Assembly (NCBI GenBank): GCA_016931535.1 | Contig: JAFGEP010000096.1 | Span: 104,091 to 168,090, forward strand | Length of the DNA: 64,000 bases | Reading direction: 5' to 3' | Origin: Bradymonadales bacterium | GTDB taxonomy: Bacteria; Myxococcota_A; Bradymonadia; JAFGEP01 | Made by a program: the position numbers and the translations under genes | In this document: positions 142 to 12,162 of the stretch, one piece after another | Numbering within the stretch: the stretch's first letter is position 1 | How the letters are laid out: every line of letters starts with the position of its first letter | Notes under the pieces: model-generated | What the model was told of the DNA's origin: nothing | The model's database searches: none | The model's input: the letters and a program-made list of their open reading frames with translations, nothing else

Positions 142-1524
142 GTGAGAGTAGGGAAGCGCCTCACCTGCACATTGACCTGCGGTCTCTGGTTCTGGATGGC
201 ATGGATGGGGTGGCCCGGGGTGGGCCAGGCCTCTCGCTTTTTTGTCTCCATGGAGAGCGCTGGCGACGCCGACGAGCTGACGCGAAGCGACCTGGACGGC
301 CTGGTACGGCGCCGTTTCTCTCAGAGCCTTTTCTTCTCCGGTACCCACCTGCTCACCGAGGAGAGCAACTCCCTGGAGATCCTGTTTCGAGGTCGAGCCG
401 ACACCGACTTCGCTCGGCTGGTGGACGAGCGTTCCCGTGATCCGAGGGAACGGGAGGCGATCGGCTTCGAGCTGCAGATGGCCTATCTCCGTTATGCGCC
501 CACCGACTCGATCTCCTTGCGGGCCGGACGGTTGTTTGTCTTGGGGCCGCTGCCTGCCGTCGACCTGGACGGGCTCGCCCTGCAGATCAACGGGTTTCAC
601 GGGTGGAGCGGCCAGGTGGGGTTGGGACGGGAGGTCCGCTATGGGCAATCCCGGGTAGACGGTGGAGCCTTCGACGCCCTGGGGCCGCGTTGGTCCTACT
701 TTGACGACCCGAGGGAGGAGACGACCTGGTTGACCCAGGCCGACCTGGGTTGGTCGGGCGGCCCGGTGACCGCCCGGGGAGGGCACCGGGTGGGCTGGCG
801 TCACGGGGACCGGGTCAGTCAGCTGACCTCGCTGGTCGGGCGTCTGGTCTTGGGAGGTTGGGACGGGACCTTGCGGGGCACCTTCAATCACCTGATGGAA
901 AGGCCGGATCGGCTCGAGGCTCGGGTGACGATCCCGCTGGATGTGCTTTCGACCCGTCTACGCCTGGGATATAGCTACCTGCGTCCCTGGTTTGACGGCG
1001 ACAGCATCTTCAACGTCTTTCCCATGTCGCCCCACGTGTGCTGGCAAGCAGGGGCGGAGACTCGGCTCTCCCAGCGAACCGAGCTGTGGGTGGGCGGGCA
1101 CCAGCGGGTCTATGCTCTCCAAGAGGAGATCCCCTGGCTGGGAGGCCTCGATCCCGCTGCCGACACCTACTCGTCGGGCGGTGAGTTCAACCTGTATGCC
1201 CAGCTCCTGCCGGTCCTGCATGTTCGCGGGACCTTCAGTGGAGAGACCGGGTACGGCGGTACATTGCTCAGCACCGAGGCGGCTGCTTCCTGGCAGGTCG
1301 TGCCTCAGCGGCTCGAGCTGGGCGCGAGGTTACGTCACTTCTACCTGTCGGATCCGGATTTCAGCGGAACGAGGGAGCACCAGGGGGCGGCCAGGTTACG
1401 GGGGGCTTTTCGATTGAGTAGCTTTGGCGATCTGGCGGTCACCCTGGAAGGGGTAAGCAACTTTCGGACCACCGTGGCGTTCAGAGCGATGGCACTGGCC
1501 ACCTTCGACCTGGGGCCGTTTTGA
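142..1524 (+). CDS. Putative outer-membrane beta-barrel protein; the start codon is uncertain
   Basis: 460-aa ORF with alternating hydrophobic/polar beta-strand-like pattern, Gly/Tyr/Arg-rich, and a C-terminal ...FDLGPF ending in Phe, typical of OMP barrels. Its stop is 2 nt before the next ORF. No recognisable catalytic motif. Confidence 0.4.
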   Translation: MRVGKRLTCTLTCGLWFWMAWMGWPGVGQASRFFVSMESAGDADELTRSDLDGLVRRRFSQSLFFSGTHLLTEESNSLEILFRGRADTDFARLVDERSRDPREREAIGFELQMAYLRYAPTDSISLRAGRLFVLGPLPAVDLDGLALQINGFHGWSGQVGLGREVRYGQSRVDGGAFDALGPRWSYFDDPREETTWLTQADLGWSGGPVTARGGHRVGWRHGDRVSQLTSLVGRLVLGGWDGTLRGTFNHLMERPDRLEARVTIPLDVLSTRLRLGYSYLRPWFDGDSIFNVFPMSPHVCWQAGAETRLSQRTELWVGGHQRVYALQEEIPWLGGLDPAADTYSSGGEFNLYAQLLPVLHVRGTFSGETGYGGTLLSTEAAASWQVVPQRLELGARLRHFYLSDPDFSGTREHQGAARLRGAFRLSSFGDLAVTLEGVSNFRTTVAFRAMALATFDLGPF

Positions 1525-1741
1525 CGTGGCGAGTGGGACTGGTGCATGGGGAACGGGTCCTCCCGATCAGGGGGAATCAGCCGAATCGGGGCGCAAAACG
1601 ACAGAAGTCCGACCTGCCGAACGGCAGACCGATCCGAGGGTGGTGAGAAGACTCGTCGGATCGATGCGTCACGCCGAAGGGGCCGGCACTGCCGGTCATC
1701 AGATCGGCTCGGGTGTCCTTTGGACCTTCCATCGCTGGTCG

Positions 1742-2983
1742 ATGTGGTTCCCAGCAGTCTTGCGGTTCGGGTTTTCGTCCAGCTGGAGTGCTGGCAGGTC
1801 GTCCGATCGAACTGGTCGGGGGGTGCGGCTATGGATTGGCCTGGGGGCAGTGCTGGCGTTGGCCTGGGGGGCCTATGCCTGGGGTGAATCGGGGGATCTG
1901 ATCGGGACGCGGCTGCCCTCTAGGGCGGTATATCCTCCCCATGACTACCAGGTGATCTTCGACCACGCCTTTCACAGCCAGCAGTCGCCATGCCCCCTTT
2001 GCCACCGCATGGTGGCGATGGATGAGGGGGTCCCGGCCGAACCGATGCCCTCCATGGAGACCTGTGGAAGCTGTCACGACCAGGCAGCCGACACCGAGGA
2101 TCCGCTGGCGTGTTCCCATTGCCATCGCGACTACCGGCCGATGTGGCCGGATGATCGCGGGATGACCGGCGTTCGCGATCCGCGCTTTCCCCTGGTGAGG
2201 CCCAGGCCCCCCGTGAGGCTGGCGGCCAATCTCCACTTCGAGCATGGCACGCATGGGCGGATCCCCTGCGTCACCTGCCACCCGATGGAGGTGGAAGGTG
2301 GCGCTTCTCTGCCGCTGGAAGAGCTGTGCCTGGATTGCCACCGGAGCTCGGCGGTTTCGGACGACTGTGGGACCTGTCATCCTTCCGGCGATGACGGGCG
2401 GCTGGTCACCCGTTTTTCGGGCAGCCGCACAGCGAGCCCGCAGCTCCTCCGTCCCGCCGACCACGGCCTCTCGTTCCGACAGGACCATGGGGGAGCGGTA
2501 CAGGCGGAGCCGACCGCCTGTTTCCGGTGCCACTCGGAGCAGAGCTGTCTGAACTGCCACGTGCCCTCCCTGGGGATCAGGACCATCCACCCCCCGGGTT
2601 TCATCGAGGATCACGGTCTGGATGGGCGGCGAGCGGGGAGAAACTGTGCTTCTTGCCACCAGGTCACCGCCTTCTGCGTCGACTGCCACGTCGATGCGGG
2701 ATATGGAGACGACACGGTTCACGGACCCGTCTCGGGGTACCCCTACCACCCGGCCGGCTGGCAGGATCTGGATGGGCGGCATGGCCGAGCGGCCCAGCGA
2801 AACCTGGCCGAGTGCGCATCCTGCCATCAGGAGAGCCACTGTGCGGGATGCCACCAGGCGGTGTCTCCCCACGGTCCCGCCTTTGGCGCGCGGTGTGGGA
2901 CGTTGCGATCGGCCAATCCCTCCGTATGCACACGCTGTCACGCCGACGAGTACATGGCGTCCCTTCTGGACCGATGCCGATGA
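1742..2983 (+). CDS. Multi-haem c-type cytochrome, ~13 CXXCH motifs, with an N-terminal transmembrane/signal anchor
   Basis: CXXCH motifs read directly: CPLCH, CGSCH, CSHCH, CVTCH, CLDCH, CGTCH, CFRCH, CLNCH, CASCH, CVDCH, CASCH, CAGCH, CTRCH. The hydrophobic segment WIGLGAVLALAWGAYAWG precedes the first haem site. Start chosen at ATG 1742 (MWFPAV...). The ORF is open from 1526, so the true start could be upstream. Confidence 0.75.
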   Translation: MWFPAVLRFGFSSSWSAGRSSDRTGRGVRLWIGLGAVLALAWGAYAWGESGDLIGTRLPSRAVYPPHDYQVIFDHAFHSQQSPCPLCHRMVAMDEGVPAEPMPSMETCGSCHDQAADTEDPLACSHCHRDYRPMWPDDRGMTGVRDPRFPLVRPRPPVRLAANLHFEHGTHGRIPCVTCHPMEVEGGASLPLEELCLDCHRSSAVSDDCGTCHPSGDDGRLVTRFSGSRTASPQLLRPADHGLSFRQDHGGAVQAEPTACFRCHSEQSCLNCHVPSLGIRTIHPPGFIEDHGLDGRRAGRNCASCHQVTAFCVDCHVDAGYGDDTVHGPVSGYPYHPAGWQDLDGRHGRAAQRNLAECASCHQESHCAGCHQAVSPHGPAFGARCGTLRSANPSVCTRCHADEYMASLLDRCR

Positions 2984-3202: not shown

Positions 3203-3757
3203 ATGGGCATGCAAGTGACCAAGGAGATGTTGGACGCCAGGCAGCAGAAGCTGATGGACACGGCCAACCAGATACTGAAGCTGGCCAACACGAAGGGCGA
3301 GCACGGGGACGAGATCGTGAAGCTGGCGAACCAGGCCCAGAAGGAGGCTCAGGAGCTGGAGGCGATGGCCAAGGTGTACGAGGCCCAGTCGCTGGAGGGC
3401 CGCAAGCCGGCAAAGGCGGTGCCAACAACCATCTACGTGGAGCTGACCGACGAGCAGCGCAAGCGCATCCTGGATGAGACCGGGGTGCGCATGGAGAGGG
3501 TGGAGATTCCGGACGATACCGGGATCATGGAGCGGACCATGCCCGTCAACCAACCTCCGGACATCTACCCCCTGGCTTTGCAGCAGGCCCGTTCGAGAAA
3601 AGCACTGGAAGAGGCCGAGCAGGCGGCAATGGCCGATGCGGCCAAGGGGCTGGCTGCCCTGAAGGCGCAGCGCAACCCGGACATGGACAAGCTGGTGGAG
3701 AAGGCCAAGGCGGATCCCAACTTCCTGTGCGGTCTGTTACAGAAACAGAAAAAGTAG
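3203..3757 (+). CDS. Hypothetical Lys/Glu/Ala-rich, coiled-coil-like protein
   Basis: 184-aa ORF with a GGGAGG-like RBS just upstream of the ATG. Coding-like codon usage, no signal peptide, no recognisable domain. Confidence 0.5.
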   Translation: MGMQVTKEMLDARQQKLMDTANQILKLANTKGEHGDEIVKLANQAQKEAQELEAMAKVYEAQSLEGRKPAKAVPTTIYVELTDEQRKRILDETGVRMERVEIPDDTGIMERTMPVNQPPDIYPLALQQARSRKALEEAEQAAMADAAKGLAALKAQRNPDMDKLVEKAKADPNFLCGLLQKQKK

Positions 3758-3998
3758 GAAGGGGCGAGGTTCGGATCCTGGCGAGTCCCAGTTCGGTTCA
3801 TCACCCATGTGGACCGGTCTGGGAAAGGGGAGGCCTTGTCGAATGGAGGTCAGGGACGACCGTCGGGCTGCCGAGAGGTTCTGGCGTGTACAGTTGGCAC
3901 CGAGGGAAGGGGTTGGCCACGGTGCTCGGGTCGATGGTCCCCCGAGGGCCATGTTACCCTGATTCCAGAAGGGCAATCACCAGAGTCGATCCGGGGGG

Positions 3999-4904
3999 CT
4001 AGGCGATGGTGTGGCCGGGAGCGCCGATGTTGTCGCCGCTGACCACCGGTCCCACCGGGACATAGGGTGGGGAGAAGGTGGGGATGGGCCCCTTGCCCAT
4101 GACCAGCATGACCTGCTGCTGGGGCAACCACATCAGGAAAGCCAGGGACAAGGTGGTGGCCACGGCCTCGAACAGGGTCTCGTGGAACTTGTCCGGGTCG
4201 TCGTCCTTGATCTTTTGGTCCAGGGCGTCCACGCACGCTTTTTTCATGTCGCTGGGGGCGACGATCTTGGACATCATGGCGGAGGGACAGGCGATAAAAG
4301 GGACCGGTACGTTGGGCATGGGGGGTGCCATGGGGCCCGGGAAGGCGGCGAAGGCGGGGTACCAGGGCAATCCGGGCACCATGACCTTGGCCGCCCAGGC
4401 GTCGAAGCACTCCCCAACCCCTTTGGCGCAGGCCTCCAGGAACTTTTTCTTGTTGTCCTTCCAGGCGGCGCCGCCGGGGAACATCTTGATCTTGTCCTCC
4501 ATCTTGGGGCCGTCGAGGCAGCCGGGGGTCCCGATGGCCGACACCGCCATGACCTTGAGGTCTTTTAACTTGGCTTCCAGCCGCCACATGTCCACGCCGA
4601 ACTTGACGGCGTCGATCAGGCCATCGTAGAGCTCCTTGTAGGCCTTGCCGATCTCGTCGCAGCTATCCTGGTGGTACTTGTTGGCGTTTTGTGGGTTGAG
4701 CCAAGGGAATGGCGTCTGTCCCGGGGTGGCGACCTTTTCCTCGGGTTTGAGGGAATCATCGTAGTGTTTGGCGGCGGGATCGCCCTGGGGCTGCTTCCAT
4801 TCCGTGGGCAGCTTGTGCATCTTCCCGACAAAGACCAGCTCACCTAGGATGTTGATGGGGCTCAGAGGGGGCATCTTTTCTCTCCGCTTCGCGCTTCTCC
4901 TCAA
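3999..4904 (-). CDS. Hypothetical Cys-containing protein with no recognisable domain
   Basis: 301-aa ORF, divergent from the PAAR gene and convergent with the 3203 ORF. Local GC is slightly lower than the surroundings. No signal peptide. Confidence 0.5.
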   Translation of the reverse strand: MRRSAKRREKMPPLSPINILGELVFVGKMHKLPTEWKQPQGDPAAKHYDDSLKPEEKVATPGQTPFPWLNPQNANKYHQDSCDEIGKAYKELYDGLIDAVKFGVDMWRLEAKLKDLKVMAVSAIGTPGCLDGPKMEDKIKMFPGGAAWKDNKKKFLEACAKGVGECFDAWAAKVMVPGLPWYPAFAAFPGPMAPPMPNVPVPFIACPSAMMSKIVAPSDMKKACVDALDQKIKDDDPDKFHETLFEAVATTLSLAFLMWLPQQQVMLVMGKGPIPTFSPPYVPVGPVVSGDNIGAPGHTIA

Positions 4905-5149
4905 AAGCTAGTCATTGGTGTCGAACTGTTCAAGTGCCGCGATGCTGGGTCCCTGCCAGTTGAGTGCGGGAACTTTGTTCCGCCACTTGCACAACGGCAG
5001 AATACACCATACCTTTGTGATTGGGCCAGGGTGATTTGGGCCCGGCGATGCGGTCGCTCGTTTCGCCTCTCCATGGGGTAGGGCGAAGGGCCCCTTCGCG
5101 CGATAACCAGTACGTTTTGTCGAGTGCGAACAAATAGTAGGAGTATCCG

Positions 5150-5473
5150 ATGCCTGCAGCAGGTCGTCTCGCAGATCTAGCCAAAGCGGATCCTCATGCC
5201 CATTGCTGTCCCGCCTGCCCTCATCCCACAGTGGGTCCCTTGATCCTTGGCTCGCCCGATGTGTTCATCAATAACATGCCAGCGGGGCGAAAGACGGATA
5301 TGGGCATCCATGCCGCCTGCTGTGGACCCAACATCTGGATGGCGGACGCCGGAAGCGGCACCGTGTTCATCAACGGGAAGGCCGCCTTCCGCAAGGACGA
5401 TGCCACCAAGCATTGTGGAAGCTTCGCTGGCAAGCTGATCCAGGGCAGCCCCGACGTGATCGTCGGCGATTGA
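5150..5473 (+). CDS. PAAR-domain protein (PAAR_motif/DUF4150-like spike-tip protein)
   Basis: 107 aa with repeated PAAR-type segments: MPAAGR...GSPDVFINNMPAGR...DMGIHAACCGPN...GSGTVFINGKAAFR...HCGSFAGKLIQGSPDVIVG. The paired CC/C metal-site residues are present. Confidence 0.8.
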   Translation: MPAAGRLADLAKADPHAHCCPACPHPTVGPLILGSPDVFINNMPAGRKTDMGIHAACCGPNIWMADAGSGTVFINGKAAFRKDDATKHCGSFAGKLIQGSPDVIVGD

Positions 5474-5720
5474 CCCGCCCGGTCCGATCCCTTTCCCCGA
5501 CCATTCGACCACCCCGCGCAGCGAACGAGGACCGTTGACCAACCAGATCCCGGTCTCTTTCCACCTGCTCCGGTAGCTCCGTCGTTTTTCCCGCCCCTCG
5601 AGGTCCGCCGCTCGGGGCCACTCTGTCCGGTTCGACCCGTTTTCCCTGTTCGAGTGGGCGGACAAGCAGAGCGCTCTCCCCTGCCGCGCCAATCGCGGGG
5701 CAGGCAGTGGATTTTTACCT

Positions 5721-6677
5721 TCACCCCTCCTTGACCGCCAGCCTTCCGTGGAGTCGATAGCGATATCGCACCCGGTGGGTGCGGGCCATCTCCCAGGGGA
5801 TCGAATCGACCCGTTCCAGAGTGCGCAGGCCAAGGCGGTGCAGCAGCGCATCCCACTGGCCGTCCTCGGTGGCCAGCCAATGTTCCGGCTCGACCAGCGA
5901 GCGGCTCCAGCTATCCGGCTGTGCCAGGATCAGGTAGCCGCCCGGTCGGATGAGCGCCACGGCCTGCCCGAGAACCACCCAGGGATCGCGGACGCTGTCC
6001 AGCAGGTTGACGGCCAGCACCAGGTCGAAGGCGGAAGCGGCCAGGGGCGGATGGAGGACATCGGCACAGATCCAGCGCACCCGTCCGGGGGTGGGGCTTA
6101 CCGGGACATCGGCCTGGGTGAGCTCGAACAGCCCTTCCGACCGGAGGCGAGGCCAGACGAGCTGTTGGCTCCGTTGGGCCAGGTTGGCCCAGTAGAGGTT
6201 GGTCGGTTCGTGGTCGAGACCCGTGACGGCGCAGCCGGTCCGGTGGGCGATCTCCAGGGTGAGGCGACCGGGACCGCAACCGAGGTCCACCGCCGTCTGG
6301 GTCGGCTCCGGGATGCGGGGCAGCAACAGGTCGCACAATGCGGTAAACGGCTCGGCTTCTCCTCCGTAGTGGGCGGACAGGTACATGGCGGCGAAGACCG
6401 CACTATCCCAGGTCGGCTCGCCGGGTGTCAGGCTGTTCAGCTCCACCAACCAACGCGCCATGGAAGGGAGATCACGGTTCACGTCGACCTGCAGAATCGA
6501 GTCGACAGACCCCGGCACGATCACCGGAACGCCGTTGGAGAGACGGGGAAACACTCGGCGGCAATCCGGGTTGGAGCAGGTCAGGCTATCCGGGTCGACC
6601 GGCCAGGCCTGGGGTGGCTGGCGGCACAGGGGGCAGATGAGAAGCTCGGAGGGATGAACAGCCATGCACCCTGTCAT
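5721..6677 (-). CDS. Class I SAM-dependent methyltransferase with an N-terminal Trm112-like zinc ribbon
   Basis: CxxC...CxxC ribbon (LICPLCRQ...LTCSNPDCRR) followed by the SAM motif I VDLGCGPGRLT. The start (ATG 6677 or 6665) is uncertain. Confidence 0.7.
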   Translation of the reverse strand: MTGCMAVHPSELLICPLCRQPPQAWPVDPDSLTCSNPDCRRVFPRLSNGVPVIVPGSVDSILQVDVNRDLPSMARWLVELNSLTPGEPTWDSAVFAAMYLSAHYGGEAEPFTALCDLLLPRIPEPTQTAVDLGCGPGRLTLEIAHRTGCAVTGLDHEPTNLYWANLAQRSQQLVWPRLRSEGLFELTQADVPVSPTPGRVRWICADVLHPPLAASAFDLVLAVNLLDSVRDPWVVLGQAVALIRPGGYLILAQPDSWSRSLVEPEHWLATEDGQWDALLHRLGLRTLERVDSIPWEMARTHRVRYRYRLHGRLAVKEG

Positions 6678-6731
6678 GCAAGAGGGGAAGAATGCTGCCG
6701 ACAACGAAACGGCCCGCAAGGGAGCGCATTC

Positions 6732-7493
6732 ATGGTCCGATGGTATATCACGCTCTTGTGGACGGCACTACTGGGGATGACATCCGGCTGCGAGGAGCAG
6801 CTGCTGTTCGAGCCCGATCCATTTCAGCGGGAGCTGGTGCGCACCTATGCCCGTGAGACCGGCTGGGCGGATCGGGCTTTCGGAGCCGACCTGGTATGCA
6901 TCACAACCACCAGACCCCTGTGTCTGTGCGACCCCGAGCGGCTGGACCAGATCGTCAACGGGCTCCCCAACCACCTGAGACTGGACCTCAACAGCGCCTC
7001 GCGGGAGGAGCTGATCCGACTTCCCGGGATCGGACCTCGCCTCGCCGAGCGGATTCTCGCCTCCCGTCGGGATCGCCCCTTTGCCTGTGTGGAGGACCTG
7101 ACCCGGGTAGAGGGTATCGGCCCTGGCCGTCTGGCCAAGCTAGCCCACCTGGTGCGGGTGGGGGCCCATGAGCCGGATCGTTCTGAGACTCGAGAGGAGC
7201 CCGAGGTAGCGGAGGAAGCTGGGGGAGGCGAGCGTGGGGTGGCGCCAGGCACGGGAGCGGCGCCGGACAGGGCGGAGAGGGCAGACAGGAGGGAAAGGGC
7301 GAGCAGAGGGGAGAGAGCCCAGAGGATTTCCTCTTCGAGGGGAAGGCATAGCCGGGGGAGAAGGGGGCCAAGGGAGCCGTCTGATGATCCGGGGATGGCT
7401 GCCAGCGGTGAGGCGAACCGGTTTTTCCAGCGGATCCGGGACCTGGTGGTCGCGGTGGTGGCGAGCAGCAAAATAGCTGTGCACGACCGGTGA
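6732..7493 (+). CDS. ComEA-family helix-hairpin-helix DNA-binding lipoprotein
   Basis: Lipobox LLGMTSGC, then the ComEA signature DLNSASREELIRLPGIGPRLAERILASRRDRPFACVEDLTRVEGIGPGRLAKL. Acidic/basic low-complexity C-terminus. The upstream part of the long 5748..7493 ORF is antisense to the methyltransferase and was rejected. Confidence 0.75.
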   Translation: MVRWYITLLWTALLGMTSGCEEQLLFEPDPFQRELVRTYARETGWADRAFGADLVCITTTRPLCLCDPERLDQIVNGLPNHLRLDLNSASREELIRLPGIGPRLAERILASRRDRPFACVEDLTRVEGIGPGRLAKLAHLVRVGAHEPDRSETREEPEVAEEAGGGERGVAPGTGAAPDRAERADRRERASRGERAQRISSSRGRHSRGRRGPREPSDDPGMAASGEANRFFQRIRDLVVAVVASSKIAVHDR

Positions 7494-7561
7494 AGCGTTG
7501 GCGGTGATCCACGGGCCGTGGGGCACACAAAGGGAGGAGGAGGAGCCCTGGCAGCGGCGAC

Positions 7562-8797
7562 TCAGTGGTCTCCGTCACACTCGATAGGGCCCAACGGCAG
7601 CTCCTGGTCCGCCAGGAAACCCATGAGCAGGCGGGAGCCGTGGGTGCTGCCCAGGTAGTGGTGGATCTCCTCGCAGGCTCCTCCGATGCGCAGGTTGCTG
7701 CCCGGTCCGGTCTCGTATCCTGCCGACGTCACCACAGCCCGCCCGTTGACGGGGTTGTATACCAGCATCCGGGTTCCTCCCGCGGGTCGATAGCGCCAGT
7801 ACATGTTGACATACCAGGCCTCGTCGAGTACTGGCGGGCGCACGGTGGAGCCCTGGCCATATTCGCACCCGCCCTCTCCGGCGGGGGCCCAGTCGCTGGT
7901 GCGGGTCATGACATAGCCGGAGACGCTCTGGGAGAGCGCATAGTGGTCCTCGAGCCCCTCTCTCGAAGAGGTGGGCCATCCGTCCGGAAATTCCTGGGTG
8001 GTGACCAGGTGGGCTTCGCGCACCACCTCGCCGATGGCCGGTAGCTGCAGCGGCTCTTCGCGGTTGATCAAGTCGATGGGATCTTGCTGCATCTGGCAGA
8101 CGCCCGAAAAGAGATCGGTCAGATCCACCTCCAGCGTGTAGGGACCAGCCAGGGCGGTTCCCTCGGAATCGACCCAGGTATCGACCACCAGGTAGAGGTC
8201 TTCTTCGGGCCACACCACGTGGTAGAAGCGGTAGTGATGGCGCACGAGGCATGCATCAGGATCCGGTCCGGACAACAGGTGGATGTCCACATCGATCTCC
8301 TGTTCGCTGCCATCGCCAACCGATACGGACAGGACACCGGCCGAGGGAAGAACCAGGCGATAGACCACTTCGGCGCCCGACTCGTTGATGGTGGGGGCGC
8401 AGCTGTAGGCGTCCACCTCTGCCTGGTCCACCAGGGAGGTGTCGCGGGAATCGGAGAAAGGAAAGCGGTCGATGACAAACGGCTCCTCCCAGGTGCCGGT
8501 GCCGGTCGGGAAGGGGGACTGGTCCTCGATCTCCGGAGACCAGTCACCGGGATCGATCGTACCATCGAGGACGAGATCGGGATCGGTCGGGAGTTCTGTG
8601 GGGGGAAGATCCGGGTCGTCGATCTCCGGGTCGGAGACCGGGATGTCGGACGGTCCCTGGTCGATCGGTTCAGCGTCTGAGATGTCGGATCGATCCGAAG
8701 CGGGAACATCGTGCAGCACCTGGCAGCCGAGGGGCTGCAAGGTCAGCCCGAAGAGAAGGACCGCAAGGTGGCAGCGAGCGAGAGAGGGTGCGTGCAT
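7562..8797 (-). CDS. Hypothetical secreted lipoprotein with an acidic Pro/Asp-rich N-terminal region
   Basis: Signal/lipobox LAVLLFGLTLQPLGCQ. 411 aa, coding-like GC3, no identifiable domain. Confidence 0.5.
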   Translation of the reverse strand: MHAPSLARCHLAVLLFGLTLQPLGCQVLHDVPASDRSDISDAEPIDQGPSDIPVSDPEIDDPDLPPTELPTDPDLVLDGTIDPGDWSPEIEDQSPFPTGTGTWEEPFVIDRFPFSDSRDTSLVDQAEVDAYSCAPTINESGAEVVYRLVLPSAGVLSVSVGDGSEQEIDVDIHLLSGPDPDACLVRHHYRFYHVVWPEEDLYLVVDTWVDSEGTALAGPYTLEVDLTDLFSGVCQMQQDPIDLINREEPLQLPAIGEVVREAHLVTTQEFPDGWPTSSREGLEDHYALSQSVSGYVMTRTSDWAPAGEGGCEYGQGSTVRPPVLDEAWYVNMYWRYRPAGGTRMLVYNPVNGRAVVTSAGYETGPGSNLRIGGACEEIHHYLGSTHGSRLLMGFLADQELPLGPIECDGDH

Positions 8798-8920
8798 GGC
8801 CGTGCCTTTGTCGTCGTGCCGGTTCATTCCACCTTGTTTGATAGCAAGCCTCTACCGTTTGCGCAAACGGTCGTCTATGATTCTATCCGTTCGGTGCAAC
8901 AACCAATAGACGAGGGAAAG

Positions 8921-9187
8921 ATGGACGAGGATACCTCGGGTTCTTCGAAGGAGAAACCGGTGGTCGCTGCCACCAGCCCCATCGCGCTCGAGCTGGAGGC
9001 GGGCACCTACTGGTGGTGCAGTTGCGGGCGTTCTCAGGCTCAGCCGTTCTGTGATGGTTCGCACGTCACCACCGGCTTGACACCACTGGAGTTTTCCCTC
9101 GAGGAGACCCGCACGGTCTACCTGTGCAGATGCAAGCAGACGAAGACCCCCCCCTTCTGTGACGGCAGTCACAACCGGTTGACCTGA
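8921..9187 (+). CDS. CDGSH-type iron-sulfur domain protein (mitoNEET-like, tandem CDGSH)
   Basis: Two C-x-C-x(n)-CDGSH motifs: WWCSCGRSQAQPFCDGSH and LCRCKQTKTPPFCDGSH. RBS GAGGGAAAG upstream of the ATG. Confidence 0.8.
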   Translation: MDEDTSGSSKEKPVVAATSPIALELEAGTYWWCSCGRSQAQPFCDGSHVTTGLTPLEFSLEETRTVYLCRCKQTKTPPFCDGSHNRLT

Positions 9188-9222
9188 CTTACGCCAAAAG
9201 GCTCGTCCGCAGGCGGAGGGGA

Positions 9223-12162
9223 GTGAAATCGTTGCGAATCGAGGCGACCATGCCGGTGTCAGACCCTCTTTCTGCAACATCGATAGAAGCCTCGCGTTCT
9301 CCACGCGGTACCAGGCACGTCTGTGTGTGGTGGGTATGCGGCTCCTCTGGCCAGCAGACGGGAAACCCCGGCAGTCGCCAGGCGAGGGGCGGTATCCCGT
9401 CGATCTGTCTTGCGCTGCTGGCCCTCTCGTTGGGGTGGGCGACCTGGGGATGCAAGGTGGAAGTGGCCGAGGTCCATTGCCTTGCCAGCACCGACTGCCC
9501 CGACCCGGGACAGCAATGTGTGGGGGGCCGGTGTGTACAGACCGATGACGGGGTGGATACCGGAAAGGACACCGAAGAGGATGCCCAACTGGATATCGAC
9601 CTCCCCGATTCGCAAGTGGATGGGGAGGACCAGGAGGACCAGGTAGAGCTGTGTGACTTTCAGCCCTACTGCTCGAATGACGAGAAAACGCTGATCACCT
9701 GTGTATCCGGCATGGTGGTCAGCCAGGATTGTGGCTCCCTGCGCTGTTGTGATGACGCCTGCGTGGATGTGAACAGCTCCGTGGCGCACTGTGGGGGGTG
9801 CGGCGACCGTTGCCCCGGCGCCGAAGAGGGGGTGAGCTCCACCTGTGTCAATGGCAATTGCCAGTCCTCCTGTCTGCTGGGTCGCATGGACATGAACGGA
9901 GATCTGGCGGAGGACAACAGCGACGGTTGTGAATGCTCCCTGGTTGATCCGGTGGGCGACTGCCCTCACCATGACTGCGGCTCGGGCACCACGGAGGAGG
10001 ATCGCTGCGACCTGAGCTCGCGATACCTGTATGTGGCCCCTGCACCCCTGGGCAGCTCCAGTGGAGATGGGAGCGCCGCTCAACCGTTCAAGACTCTCGA
10101 TGCGGCTCTCTTGGCCGTGACGGAGGACCACAACGTCATCCTGGTGGCGTCGGGCATCTACAACCTGAACCAGAAGCCGATCCAGTATGACGGGGAGGTG
10201 GAGATCTGGATCGCCGGAGGTTTCGATCCCTCGACAGACTGGCAGCGGTCGGAGGAACACCCCAGCACGCTAGCGGGGGCCAACCCGGTTGTCGAGATCG
10301 CGGGGAGCGCTCCAAGTCACTGGGTCCACCTGGTTCTCCTGGCGGAGGATGGAAGGGACGGGGGCCAGGCGGGAGAATCGGGAGAGACCAGCATCGGGAT
10401 GGTGGCGGTCAACACCGACCTCTCTCTGCACGAAGTGGAAGTGATAGCGGGTGATGGCGGCCTGGGCCAGCACGGGGCCGCGGGTTCTTCCGGGGTCGAG
10501 GTGAGCGTGCGAGGTCAAGCCGCTCAACCGGGTCTCGACGAGTGTATCTGCAATACGAGCGACCGGTGCACCACGGGTACGGGGAACAATATCTGTCCGC
10601 GGGCCGGGGGTTTAGGAGGAGGGAGCAATACCTGTCGCGAGGTGCCACGCTCCCACACGCGGGGAGGAGCAGGGGGGAGAGGGAAATACGGCGCATTGGA
10701 TGCGATGCCGGGTACGGATGGCGGTCATCCGTATGGAGGACTGGGAGGTACAGTAGGTTCGGGGGTCTTTCAGAACGGAGGGGTGGGAGCTGACGGATCG
10801 GCGGGAGCGCCAGGCATTGGTGGTGGGCCGTTTGGATATGTCCGCGGCAATCGCTGGCATTCTTTGCCAGGTGGTACCGGTGGAGAGGGACAGCCGGGTT
10901 TCGGAGGTGGGGGAGGTGCCGGGAAGGACCATGCACAAGATGACCAGGTGGCTGGCGCCTCCGGCGGTGGGGGTGGATCGGGAGGTTGTGGCGGTGTCGG
11001 AGGCCAGGGGGGGGGCGGTGGCGGAGGGAGCATCGCACTGTTGCTGATCGATACGCGAGCCCTCCTGGATGGCGGCCGGTTGGAGTCGGGAGAAGGCGGC
11101 GATGGCAGCCACGGCGCACAGGGGGGGGTGAGTCAGCCGGGTGAGTCGGGTCAACTGGGGGGCGCATTTGTCAACGGCTTGGGGGAGACCGAGAGGGCCG
11201 GCTCTGGTGGCGACGGTGGTGACGGTGGCGATGGCGGCCACGGTGGAGGGGGGGCGGCCGGTCTGTCGGTCAGCCTGATGGCGGTCGGATACCAGGAGGC
11301 CATTCGCTGGCTGGAGTTGCCTGATCTGGTCCACGGAGCAGCGGGAGTGGGCGGTGATGGGGCGCCGGACTATCGACTGGATCTGGATGGGGATGGCCTG
11401 CCCGACACCGAGGTCCTCTCCTCGGGGTACATCGGATATGCCGGCTATTTCCTGCGGTACGGCGAGGCCAAGACGGAAAGCGAGGAATCTGGCCAGTGCC
11501 CGCGAGGGATGGTCGAGGACTCGTCGGGGGTGAGCATCGGAGGTTTGCAGAGCCAGGTGACCTACTGCATCGACATGGTCGAGGCCACACGGCCGATGGC
11601 GACCAGCACGCAGGCCGAGGATTCCGACTGGAGCTTTTCTGGAGCTCAGGCCATGGCAGGTTACCAGGTGCTGCCCTGGAACCAGGTCAACCTGGTCGAG
11701 TCGATCATCGCCTGCAGCCGGGCGGGGAAAACCCTGTGTCCCATCGGGTTCCAACAAAATACCTGCCGGGGCGGAGAGGCGAATCATCCCTATCCCTATG
11801 GAAGCCCTCATCAGCCTGGGTTATGCAATGACGCCAGCGGAGGCCAGGGGAGCGTGGCCGTCACCGGAGGATATCCGTTGTGCGTTTCCTCCACAGGACC
11901 GGTCTTCGACCTGACCGGCAACCTGGCCGAGTGGGCCATCTCCATCCTTCCGCTGATGGGCGTCGATACCACCGAAACCGCTTATGGCGCGGTGGGCGGC
12001 AGCTACCTGGACGACAAGAACGACTCGTGCTGCAGCGCCCTGGAGTGGCTTTCAGGGATGAACATGTACGTCCGCCGGGAGGACCTGGGATTTCGCTGCT
12101 GTATGATCGCGGGCCATCTGCTCGATCAGGAGTACGGGGCGGTCATCATTCACGACCAGTGA
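9223..12162 (+). CDS. Large secreted Cys-rich-repeat / Gly-rich protein with a C-terminal FGE-sulfatase (SUMF1-like) domain
   Basis: Lipobox-like LALLALSLGWATWGC. Myxococcales-type Cys-rich repeats (C..DC...C..G.C, e.g. CGGCGDRCPGAEEGVSSTCVNGNCQSSC). Long GGxGG glycine-rich stretches. C-terminal motifs GNLAEWA...VGGSY...RREDLGFRCC match the FGE/SUMF1 fold. The start is uncertain. Confidence 0.65.
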   Translation: MKSLRIEATMPVSDPLSATSIEASRSPRGTRHVCVWWVCGSSGQQTGNPGSRQARGGIPSICLALLALSLGWATWGCKVEVAEVHCLASTDCPDPGQQCVGGRCVQTDDGVDTGKDTEEDAQLDIDLPDSQVDGEDQEDQVELCDFQPYCSNDEKTLITCVSGMVVSQDCGSLRCCDDACVDVNSSVAHCGGCGDRCPGAEEGVSSTCVNGNCQSSCLLGRMDMNGDLAEDNSDGCECSLVDPVGDCPHHDCGSGTTEEDRCDLSSRYLYVAPAPLGSSSGDGSAAQPFKTLDAALLAVTEDHNVILVASGIYNLNQKPIQYDGEVEIWIAGGFDPSTDWQRSEEHPSTLAGANPVVEIAGSAPSHWVHLVLLAEDGRDGGQAGESGETSIGMVAVNTDLSLHEVEVIAGDGGLGQHGAAGSSGVEVSVRGQAAQPGLDECICNTSDRCTTGTGNNICPRAGGLGGGSNTCREVPRSHTRGGAGGRGKYGALDAMPGTDGGHPYGGLGGTVGSGVFQNGGVGADGSAGAPGIGGGPFGYVRGNRWHSLPGGTGGEGQPGFGGGGGAGKDHAQDDQVAGASGGGGGSGGCGGVGGQGGGGGGGSIALLLIDTRALLDGGRLESGEGGDGSHGAQGGVSQPGESGQLGGAFVNGLGETERAGSGGDGGDGGDGGHGGGGAAGLSVSLMAVGYQEAIRWLELPDLVHGAAGVGGDGAPDYRLDLDGDGLPDTEVLSSGYIGYAGYFLRYGEAKTESEESGQCPRGMVEDSSGVSIGGLQSQVTYCIDMVEATRPMATSTQAEDSDWSFSGAQAMAGYQVLPWNQVNLVESIIACSRAGKTLCPIGFQQNTCRGGEANHPYPYGSPHQPGLCNDASGGQGSVAVTGGYPLCVSSTGPVFDLTGNLAEWAISILPLMGVDTTETAYGAVGGSYLDDKNDSCCSALEWLSGMNMYVRREDLGFRCCMIAGHLLDQEYGAVIIHDQ

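Follow-up and report, generated by a model that had tools for sequence, protein, structure and literature searches.

Two-gene porin-cytochrome (Pcc) conduits are known: a pcc consisting of a porin and a 12-haem or 14-haem cytochrome was reported in Anaeromyxobacter and Kuenenia, and such a pair was argued to bridge the outer membrane with no outer cytochrome involved (PMC4245776). Geobacter-type Pcc systems show the gene order ombB-omaB-omcB and have porins with 18–22 predicted strands (PMC4245776, PMC4589669). In the pcc of I. album (IALB_1839–1837), the periplasmic cytochrome (400 aa, 14 haems) has as its two neighbors a porin and an outer-membrane cytochrome whose motif is atypical (PMC4245776). 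In the crystal structure of MtrAB (6R2Q), MtrB has 26 strands, of which no more than 22 touch MtrA, and MtrB has been likened in size to FimD and LptD (PMC7198977).

The gene pair analyzed here adds to the two-gene, Anaeromyxobacter-like kind. It lies in a window of 64 kb (the whole stretch of DNA that was analyzed) from a Bradymonadales bacterium and consists of an outer-membrane β-barrel gene (ORF1, positions 142–1524, plus strand) and a 13-haem c-type cytochrome gene (ORF2, positions 1823–2983, plus strand). The two genes are probably best explained as a Pcc-type conduit of two components that carries electrons through the outer membrane, judging from the predicted barrel fold, the haem motifs, the strict gene pairing and the homology to Pcc-type clusters. 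The initial annotation of this DNA had proposed a porin-cytochrome pair; it was right about both ORFs and the 13 CXXCH motifs, but not about a 2-nt gap between the genes and a membrane anchor in the cytochrome. Our literature search for Bradymonadales and multihaem returned nothing, and no literature on this pair was found for Bradymonadales or for Myxococcota beyond Anaeromyxobacter.

The barrel gene

ORF1 starts with GTG at position 142 and encodes, as initially annotated, a 460-aa product on the plus strand with the C-terminal end ...FDLGPF. The NCBI start is at position 205 (439 aa), at the cost of the signal peptide. The start at 142 was preferred because it adds a typical signal peptide (MRVGKRLTCTLTCGLWFWMAWMGWPGVGQA, positions 142–231, cleavage probably after residue 30), as found in the equivalent position in the homologues. 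The AF2 model of ORF1 was a 22-stranded β-barrel (pLDDT 87.3, pTM 0.80), in agreement with the barrel proposed earlier. In this model, an N-terminal helix (residues 3–22) is followed by strand 1 from residue 32, such that the mature protein opens directly with strand 1 and consists of the barrel only, with no plug domain. The product was thus neither cytoplasmic nor devoid of β-strands, the two outcomes on which the barrel proposal would have foundered; it is predicted to be secreted (signal peptide) and all-β (AF2). The structural neighbors of the model in Foldseek were outer-membrane barrels throughout, MtrB included. No Plug or TonB_dep_Rec Pfam domain was found in ORF1 or in its 54 homologues. 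The ORF1 family had no match in Pfam or NCBIfam and no PDB sequence match at E ≤ 10. We therefore conclude that standard annotation misses this barrel family, for which no Pfam or NCBIfam model exists.

Conservation in the barrel family was highest in the motif RPWFDGDSIFNVF (residues 281–293, positions 982–1020), which lies in a loop, a non-strand segment of the AF2 model that joins strands 13 and 14. P282 was invariant, and F284, S288, I289 and F293 were nearly invariant (54 sequences). The terminal Phe pointed out in the initial annotation is present in ORF1 but is not a family-wide feature, with most homologues ending in ...E(V/L)W(P/R/L).

The spacer and the start of the cytochrome gene

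The cytochrome had been described as starting 2 nt after the barrel gene, at position 1526. This start was an artefact of taking the longest possible ORF. Codon-position GC values were 0.62/0.68/0.62 in positions 1526–1822, compared with 0.68/0.55/0.76 in positions 1823–2983. The cytochrome is 386 aa long in the NCBI call and 383–405 aa long in homologues, and the homologues align from the hydrophobic N-terminus onward (16-sequence family alignment). Because of the lack of upstream GC bias, the NCBI call, and the lengths and alignment of the homologues, the start was placed at GTG 1823. Thus, positions 1525–1822 (plus strand) form a non-coding spacer of 298 nt that is open in the cytochrome frame and has no codon-position GC bias. 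No terminator-like or promoter-like site and no Rfam match were found in it. In related loci, the barrel and cytochrome genes lie tightly together, either overlapping by 4 nt or directly adjoining. The spacer, which means that the genes are not translationally coupled in the window, was counted against the conduit.

The cytochrome gene

ORF2 encodes a 386-aa precursor with exactly 13 CXXCH motifs, as first noted, and no variant motifs. The chance expectation, calculated from the 28 Cys and 32 His of the 485-aa long ORF, was approximately 0.1 motifs. All 13 motifs and at least 10 non-motif His were invariant in the 16-sequence alignment of the family, and the motifs and the distal His are packed into about 365 mature residues. 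The supposed membrane anchor corresponds to residues 3–19 (RLWIGLGAVLALAWGAYA), followed by WGE; from its sequence, with an AxA site, it looks like a cleavable Sec signal peptide (VRLWIGLGAVLALAWGAYA then WGE, positions 1823–1879, plus strand). No lipobox Cys was found in the N-terminus of ORF2 or in those of its homologues, which are equivalently hydrophobic.

The 13 haems fell into two regions. Haems 1–6 (positions 1991–2380, plus strand) form an N-terminal extension of two c7-like trihaem units, with motif spacings of 24/16 and 20/13. The first unit was matched by the c7 trihaem models of both Pfam (Cytochrome_C7, PF14522; E = 8.4e-11, 42 bits against a cut-off of 24.8 bits, residues 143–201 of the long ORF) and NCBIfam (TIGR04257; 32 bits, under the cut-off of 40 bits). 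ORF2 is thereby a member of the c7 type (trihaem c7 domain), a membership that describes its domain and not its function. Haems 7–13 (positions 2519–2941, plus strand) form a C-terminal core, with pairs of CXXCH motifs only 9–10 residues apart, that was present in every Myxococcota homologue examined. The motif CASCHQExxCxxCH and other core motifs were invariant in the family. Homologues with seven haems (L009, L016, L026, L032 and L033) aligned only to HMM positions ~190–391; they lack the region of haems 1–6, which is thus dispensable in the short relatives. The best PDB match of the family profile was the dodecahaem GSU1996 (3ov0; 3.9e-31), in three matched stretches. An AF2 model of ORF2 (25-sequence alignment; pLDDT 54, pTM 0.35) was too poor for a fold search or a length estimate and was not used.

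Conservation of the pair in Myxococcota

Using the pattern FDx[DSA]SIFN[VLI]F, derived from a 10-sequence sub-alignment of the barrel family, we found 48 loci in GTDB species representatives. In 46 of these 48 genomes, a cytochrome homologue directly followed the barrel homologue on the same strand; in the other two, the contig ended there. Synteny in relatives, suggested earlier as a check on the pair, was thus conserved. The same barrel-then-cytochrome arrangement was present in L001, L004, L007, L057 and L058. All 48 carrier genomes were Myxococcota MAGs, from Bradymonadales, Polyangia, Haliangiales, Nannocystaceae and other lineages. Among Myxococcota not considered metal respirers, predatory Bradymonadales included, the pair is widespread.

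The haem count of the partner cytochrome varied (7, 11, 13, 14 or 16) on barrels of similar length. Within 7 kb of the pair, no other ORF with at least two CXXCH motifs was found in about 50 loci, with one exception. The 64-kb window encodes no other c-type cytochrome and no inner-membrane or periplasmic redox partner, which was also counted against the conduit. A minor-pilin/PilX_N/PilY1-like cluster adjoined the pair in 15 of about 55 related loci, all from a single clade. In Bradymonadales, the pair was linked to this type IV minor-pilin/PilY1-like operon in two gene arrangements. No pilin genes were found in the 64-kb window. Two kinds of neighboring candidates were discarded: a conserved 597-aa plus-strand gene downstream, which proved to be a shadow ORF antisense to a genuine Fe-S/CCG gene on the minus strand, and several seemingly conserved minus-strand clusters over the cytochrome, which were shadow ORFs of high-GC DNA.

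Remote homologues in Pcc-type clusters

The ORF1 profile matched barrels of Ignavibacteria-type, Cloacimonetes and Gemmatimonadota loci with 39–78 bits, and hhalign between the barrel families gave a probability of 98.8% (E = 7.9e-17, 376 columns). The partner cytochromes of these remote barrels matched the ORF2 profile (E = 1e-43 to 1e-56). Some of the remote loci carried further multihaem cytochromes. Rieske and cytochrome b genes were added in L059 and L062, and a 6-haem lipoprotein cytochrome with a GSu_C4xC__C2xCH motif was found in L061 and L062. L061, from Ignavibacteriaceae, fits the published I. album pcc: the gene order agrees, and so do the 400 aa and the 14 haems of the cytochrome. 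The porin-cytochrome pair first proposed is therefore supported by pairing that is kept in 46 of the 48 genomes and in distant relatives, and by the remote homology of both proteins to Pcc-type components.

Proposed mechanism and alternative explanations

In the arrangement that we infer, including insertion of the cytochrome into the barrel, its outward-facing end, the substrate and which way the electrons flow, ORF1 would be exported by the Sec pathway and form a plug-less 22-stranded β-barrel in the outer membrane, a Pcc-type, porin-like sheath. ORF2 would likewise be exported by Sec, receive its 13 covalent haems in the periplasm and thread into the barrel lumen, provided that loops L4, L7 and L8 of the barrel leave it open. 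The C-terminal 7-haem core would lie inside the barrel and reach the cell surface, and the N-terminal pair of c7-like trihaem units would jut into the periplasm and exchange electrons with redox partners located there or in the inner membrane. The haems, closely spaced and mostly bis-His, would form an insulated chain linking the periplasm with an extracellular acceptor or donor; another cell, humics or minerals of Fe(III) or Mn(IV) are candidates, and a separate surface cytochrome would be unnecessary.

In a different use of the same two proteins, ORF1 would be a conventional channel for solutes or substrates, and the 13-haem protein a soluble periplasmic reductase or oxidase that is merely co-expressed with it and never enters it; a substrate (e.g., a metal chelate, a sulfur compound or a metalloid) would diffuse through the barrel and be reduced in the periplasm. 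We regard this as unlikely. Known diffusion porins have 14–18 strands and, to our knowledge, no barrel of 22–26 strands is known that does not surround a plug or a partner protein, whereas ORF1 is plug-less. Across several phyla, the two genes are paired almost without exception, while the number of haems in the cytochrome shifts from 7 to 16. Moreover, relatives belong to canonical Pcc clusters of three parts, including an outer lipoprotein cytochrome, a set-up that would make sense only with electrons crossing the outer membrane. Decidedly unlikely is an usher-like or two-partner-secretion-like pore for export or assembly, which would move the cytochrome to the surface instead of serving as a static sheath, possibly for a filament or a surface layer and possibly together with neighboring type IV minor-pilin machinery. 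The best TM scores of ORF1 were those to two ushers, the barrels of FimD and PapC (TMq 0.43–0.54), and speak for such a pore, as does the minor-pilin/PilX_N/PilY1-like cluster next to the pair in 15 related loci; pilus-like machinery has been implicated in the export of Geobacter cytochrome nanowires. However, ORF1 has neither the N-terminal and C-terminal periplasmic domains and plug of ushers nor the POTRA domains of TpsB/Omp85, and the pilin linkage is limited to one clade and absent from the window. The usher similarity does not discriminate, since MtrB itself resembles FimD and LptD in size (PMC7198977).

The initial annotation had named an inner-membrane quinol dehydrogenase of the NapC/NrfH type with an unrelated upstream gene as the finding that would overturn the pair. 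About 17 residues at the N-terminus of ORF2 do form a hydrophobic segment, which is probably cleaved, and a NapC/NrfH/CymA-type protein would keep such a segment in the membrane. Nevertheless, this reading is very improbable. NapC and NrfH have four haems in about 190 aa, in contrast to 13 haems in the 386 aa of ORF2, which showed no match to PF03264 (Cytochrom_NNT) and has an AxA site after the hydrophobic segment. Membership in the quinol dehydrogenase family was not supported, and the upstream gene, far from being unrelated, is strictly co-conserved and encodes a predicted secreted β-barrel.

Significance

We know of no extracellular respiration in Bradymonadales, a further point against the conduit. 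If the pair is indeed a Pcc-type conduit, the capacity for extracellular electron transfer would extend to Bradymonadales and to many other lineages of Myxococcota, in which the module, present in 48 species-representative MAGs, is annotated merely as hypothetical protein. Twenty metagenomic relatives of the barrel and the cytochrome likewise carried no protein name or were labelled hypothetical. A profile of the ORF1 family would be a useful metagenome marker for Pcc-type conduits. The stated default of MHCscan is at least 15 haems per cluster (PMC11475568), and a two-gene module with 13 haems would presumably be skipped by a screen of that type. With cytochromes of 7, 11, 13, 14 or 16 haems paired to barrels that differ little in length, this natural series would offer a way to ask which haems lie inside the sheath. 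A further, rather speculative and on balance unlikely proposal takes the distribution and the pilin linkage described above as its basis: the pair may be a self-sufficient minimal trans-outer-membrane wire (22-strand sheath, 7-haem core and two c7 units) for electron exchange upon contact or for a redox role associated with pili (e.g., attack on prey or minerals), and not for classical dissimilatory metal reduction.

Comparison with known systems

The pair differs from MtrAB (Shewanella), PioAB (Rhodopseudomonas) and MtoAB (Sideroxydans) in both components. MtrB has 26 strands and about 650–700 aa, in contrast to 22 strands and 460 aa in ORF1, which does not belong to the MtrB/PioB barrel family. 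In mtrAB and pioAB, the cytochrome precedes the barrel, whereas the order is reversed in ORF1-ORF2, and ORF2 is not an upstream decahaem MtrA-type cytochrome (10 haems in MtrA, 13 in ORF2). The match of ORF2 to MtrA (6r2q_A; 6e-11) covered partial stretches at the generic level of haem motifs and was weaker than those to GSU1996, ActA and HMC. The closest solved sequence relative of ORF2 is the elongated "nanowire" dodecahaem GSU1996 of G. sulfurreducens (3OV0), which has a similar haem density. GSU1996 is built of four c7-type domains and occurs free in the periplasm, with no known barrel as partner. The N-terminal part of ORF2 matches the Cytochrome_C7 model of Pfam and the nanowire_3heme model of NCBIfam; however, GSU1996 is of the c7 type throughout, whereas only haems 1–6 look c7-like in ORF2.

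By structure, ORF1 falls in the same size class as 22–24-stranded barrels, with 7–12% sequence identity. The longest alignments (310–325 residues) were to the TonB-dependent receptors ZnuD, TdfH, FhuA and PiuA, and the highest Foldseek TM score was to the usher FimD (0.54). Both TonB-dependent receptors and ushers hold another polypeptide segment in the lumen, whereas ORF1 lacks a plug, a TonB box and the periplasmic domains of ushers; its strand count fits a TonB-dependent receptor, but the plug and the TonB box of that family are missing.

The closest likeness is to Pcc systems as defined by Shi et al. (2014; PMC4245776), in which a porin is followed by a periplasmic multihaem cytochrome, as in ORF1-ORF2. 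Barrel-first order and a barrel smaller than MtrB, noted initially as oddities, are both normal for Geobacter-type Pcc (PMC4245776, PMC4589669). The 22 predicted strands of ORF1, which also has a signal peptide and barrel neighbors as expected of a secreted outer-membrane barrel, are within the range of 18–22, and the 13 haems of ORF2, an adjacent, co-oriented and probably secreted cytochrome, are within the range of 5–14 (PMC4245776). Unlike in most pcc clusters, no outer-membrane lipoprotein multihaem cytochrome (a usual but not obligatory component) was found in the window, and no OrfR-type regulator was found near ORF1 and ORF2. The lack of an outer cytochrome is shared with the two-gene clusters of Anaeromyxobacter (12 haems) and Kuenenia (14 haems), whose published cytochromes have 338–344 aa, compared with 386 aa and 13 haems in ORF2. 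Many of the carrier lineages in Myxococcota are absent from the 2014 survey of Pcc (PMC4245776). The likeness to Geobacter and Anaeromyxobacter is one of description, and the sequence link runs via the Ignavibacteriaceae cluster that fits the I. album pcc; by this indirect link, the ORF1/ORF2 pair is placed as an unannotated, probable remote relative of the Geobacter-type Pcc systems.

Results

Both genes described in the initial annotation were present on the forward strand of the window, which is part of a Bradymonadales MAG: ORF1 (142..1524; 460 aa counted from its GTG) and, after it, an ORF with 13 CXXCH motifs. Their products were identical to the NCBI "hypothetical proteins" JW797_11130 and JW797_11135. 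The two genes had been placed 2 nt apart; this gap was an artefact of an ORF drawn upstream for as long as its frame was open, and the true non-coding spacer between barrel stop and cytochrome start is 298 nt long (1525-1822). The codon-position GC of 1526-1822 was flat (0.62/0.68/0.62); the rest of the cytochrome ORF (0.68/0.55/0.76) and ORF1 (0.65/0.51/0.79) showed the marked third-position bias of real genes of this genome. Because of this flat composition, the NCBI call of 386 aa, and homologues that are 383-405 aa long and alignable from a hydrophobic N-terminus, the cytochrome start was set at GTG 1823. The spacer is open in the cytochrome frame and misled ORF callers, one assembly's call beginning at ATG 1664 (439 aa). 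Searches of the 298 nt for terminator-like sites, promoter-like sites and Rfam families gave no match. The NCBI start of the barrel gene, ATG 205 (439 aa), removes the signal peptide, and the GTG at 142 gives one resembling those of the homologues.

When the barrel motif was scanned against one genome per GTDB species, 48 loci were recovered, all in Myxococcota MAGs (Bradymonadales, Myxococcales, Polyangia, Haliangiales, Nannocystaceae, Kofleriaceae, Persicimonas and Lujinxingia). The synteny held in these relatives: a match to the cytochrome profile (E 1e-56 to 1e-117) directly followed the barrel on the same strand in 46 loci, and the contig stopped before any cytochrome gene in the other two. 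The pairing was the same in three metagenomic loci (L001, L004 and L007), with the cytochrome start overlapping or abutting the barrel stop, and in two distant members (L057 and L058). The junction in relatives was a 4-nt overlap or abutting genes. No second multihaem gene was found within 7 kb of the pair in these loci, except for one ORF with 2 CXXCH, and none elsewhere in the 64-kb window. The pair is therefore a two-gene module in Myxococcota.

No Pfam or NCBIfam model matched ORF1, and a Pfam scan of 54 homologues gave only two single weak matches, one of them LptD. No PDB sequence matched the family profile, even at E ≤ 10. An exhaustive HMMER search returned 226 representative clusters matching ORF1 at E ≤ 0.001, and nearly all full-length members were 430-520 aa long. 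The AlphaFold2 model from a 54-sequence alignment was confident (mean pLDDT 87.3, pTM 0.80). It contained an N-terminal helix, corresponding to the signal peptide, and 22 predicted beta-strands, which supports the barrel first proposed from composition. Assuming a periplasmic N-terminus, the periplasmic turns were 2-8 residues long and the longer connections were extracellular (L2, 17 aa; L4, 31 aa, low confidence; L7, 17 aa; L8, 17 aa). Strands alternated between hydrophobic and polar residues (mean difference 2.3 Kyte-Doolittle units), with Arg, Asp, Glu, Ser, Thr and Gly abundant on the polar face. The best-conserved motif of the family, RPWFDxxSIFNxF, was located in L7. Barrel closure and lumen width were deduced from the secondary-structure assignment and the list of structural neighbours. 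The model thus predicts a large outer-membrane barrel without plug or periplasmic domain. The terminal Phe noted initially is real but not typical of the family, most members of which end in W-P/R/L.

The Cys and His content of the cytochrome predicts approximately 0.1 CXXCH by chance. All 13 motifs and at least 10 more His were invariant in a 16-sequence homologue alignment. The supposed N-terminal membrane anchor, residues 3-19 of the true protein, is followed by AYA↓WGE and is probably a cleavable Sec signal peptide. Pfam detected only one c7 trihaem domain, at the N-terminus. The haem-motif spacings (24, 16 / 52 / 20, 13 / 51 / 9, 33, 10 / 46 / 9, 29) suggest that haems 1-6 form two c7-like trihaem units, followed by a 7-haem part with closely spaced motif pairs. 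The best solved relative of the family profile was the elongated dodecahaem GSU1996 (3ov0; 3.9e-31), followed by ActA of alternative complex III, 16-haem HMC cytochromes and, more weakly, MtrA (6e-11). The AlphaFold2 model of the cytochrome was of low quality (pLDDT 54), a frequent outcome when haems are not modelled, and was left out of the analysis.

Five loci from Persicimonas, Lujinxingia and related MAGs carried a short 7-haem cytochrome (L009:6098-7171, L016:8251-9171, L026:8425-9231, L032:2606-3802 and L033:7717-9219) next to barrels of normal size. The alignment of these short versions was confined to haems 7-13, the C-terminal half, which identifies that half as the conserved core and the two c7-like units as a dispensable addition.

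In 15 loci, including L004:1-8012, L007:1-6465 and L001:1-7718, the pair adjoined a type IV minor-pilin cluster that encodes N_methyl proteins, PilX_N and a PilY1-like protein (1100-1700 aa). The cluster was divergent and upstream in L009, L012, L016, L020, L022, L026 and L030-L033, and downstream on the same strand in L024 and L054. The two different arrangements argue for an association beyond inherited synteny, and this linkage is the most unusual lead. The cluster was absent from the 64-kb window and, if this genome has it at all, would lie upstream of the window start. In 10 Myxococcota loci a gene for a 700-940-aa protein came just after the cytochrome, convergent in 9 (L010:9963-12170, reverse strand; equivalents in L011, L013, L014, L015, L021, L023, L025, L027 and L028). 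Its multi-helix hydrophobic N-terminal half, 4Fe-4S dicluster domain and two CCG domains make it an HdrD/DsrK-like membrane Fe-S protein and a candidate inner-membrane redox partner. A long ORF antisense to this gene was rejected as a shadow ORF with false apparent conservation. In two Bradymonadales-like loci the cytochrome gene was overlapped at its 3′ end by a gene (L001:10588-11730 and L007:9170-10321) for an acidic, helix-rich lipoprotein of approximately 380 aa (lipobox LLAGC or FASC; no Pfam match); the window had no counterpart downstream of its pair. Directly upstream of the barrel gene of one distant family member lay a gene (L058:5552-5992) for a monohaem cytochrome of 146 aa, with 1 CXXCH and a weak PSCyt1 match.

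The neighbours of the pair at 3203-12162 had no obvious electron-transfer link. Those on the forward strand encode a helical protein of 184 aa (3203-3757), a PAAR-domain protein (5150-5473), a helix-hairpin-helix protein (about 6709-7470), a CDGSH zinc-finger protein (about 8898-9164) and a Gly-rich protein of 979 aa (9223-12162). Those on the reverse strand encode a SAM methyltransferase (5721-6719) and two proteins of unknown function, one of 301 aa (3999-4904) and one of 421 aa that has a hydrophobic segment at its N-terminus (7562-8827).

Four loci from outside Myxococcota were reached through more remote homologues of the cytochrome; in each, the gene immediately upstream of the cytochrome encoded 400-490 aa without a confident Pfam match (one faint LptD). 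The ORF1 family HMM scored these proteins at 39-78 bits (E of about 1e-5 or better, judged from a whole-library search), and profile-profile comparison of the barrel families gave 98.8% probability (E 7.9e-17, 376 columns). The Cloacimonetes locus (L060) had 9-haem, rhodanese, barrel and 11-haem genes, with Fe-S/NrfD genes downstream; the Ignavibacteriaceae locus (L061) had barrel, 14-haem and 6-haem lipoprotein cytochrome genes, the last with a GSu_C4xC__C2xCH motif. In the Gemmatimonadota locus (L059:1-6542; multihaem, Rieske, cytochrome b, 8-haem, barrel, 16-haem) and a metagenome contig (L062:1-8222; multihaem, Rieske, cytochrome b, 11-haem, 3-haem, barrel, 14-haem, 6-haem, then cytochrome-assembly and haem-synthesis genes), the pair was co-oriented with Rieske, cytochrome b and two or three more multihaem cytochromes. 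Each of these two strings looks like a complete quinol-to-outer-membrane chain.

Discussion

To our knowledge, MtrAB is the only solved conduit. By analogy with it, the barrel would sheathe and insulate the haem chain; the 22 predicted strands would enclose the conserved 7-haem core, and haems 1-6 would extend into the periplasm. MtrB has tight periplasmic turns, long surface loops and a FimD/LptD-like size, and its strands 1-4 make no contact with MtrA, leaving 22 that do (PMC7198977). The Rieske/cytochrome b and NrfD-type modules encoded alongside the pair in relatives suggest a connection to the quinone pool. The barrel fold is predicted, and we infer that the cytochrome is inserted, which way round it sits, in which direction electrons flow and what the substrate is.

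It could be suggested instead that the barrel is an export or usher-like pore, given the usher similarity of ORF1 and the minor-pilin genes adjoining the pair within a single clade; yet usher and POTRA domains are both missing from ORF1, and the same usher resemblance is seen in MtrB. That the cytochrome is a NapC/NrfH-type inner-membrane enzyme, the alternative named in the initial annotation, is contradicted by its haem number, the lack of a NapC/NrfH signal (PF03264) in Pfam and the strict pairing with a barrel.

A porin-cytochrome pair, as first proposed, is the reading that agrees on every point tested with the porin-cytochrome (Pcc) clusters described by Shi et al. 2014 (PMC4245776), the likeness being to the published description. 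Pcc porins have 18-22 predicted strands, each porin gene is associated with a periplasmic cytochrome gene, and these cytochromes carry 5-14 haems (PMC4245776). The Ignavibacteriaceae locus fits the description of the Ignavibacterium album pcc cluster (PMC4245776). Anaeromyxobacter (Myxococcota) and Kuenenia were reported to have clusters of two genes, in which the cytochrome carries 12 or 14 haems; a membrane crossing that needs no outer cytochrome was proposed for them (PMC4245776). The kind of system is already known, its two-gene form in Myxococcota having been in the literature since 2014. What is new is that a large barrel family without a curated model has been recognised, that it is strictly paired with a cytochrome of 13 (or 7) haems in many Myxococcota lineages, including Bradymonadales, and that it shows apparent remote homology to the Pcc clusters of the Ignavibacteria, Gemmatimonadota and Cloacimonetes type.
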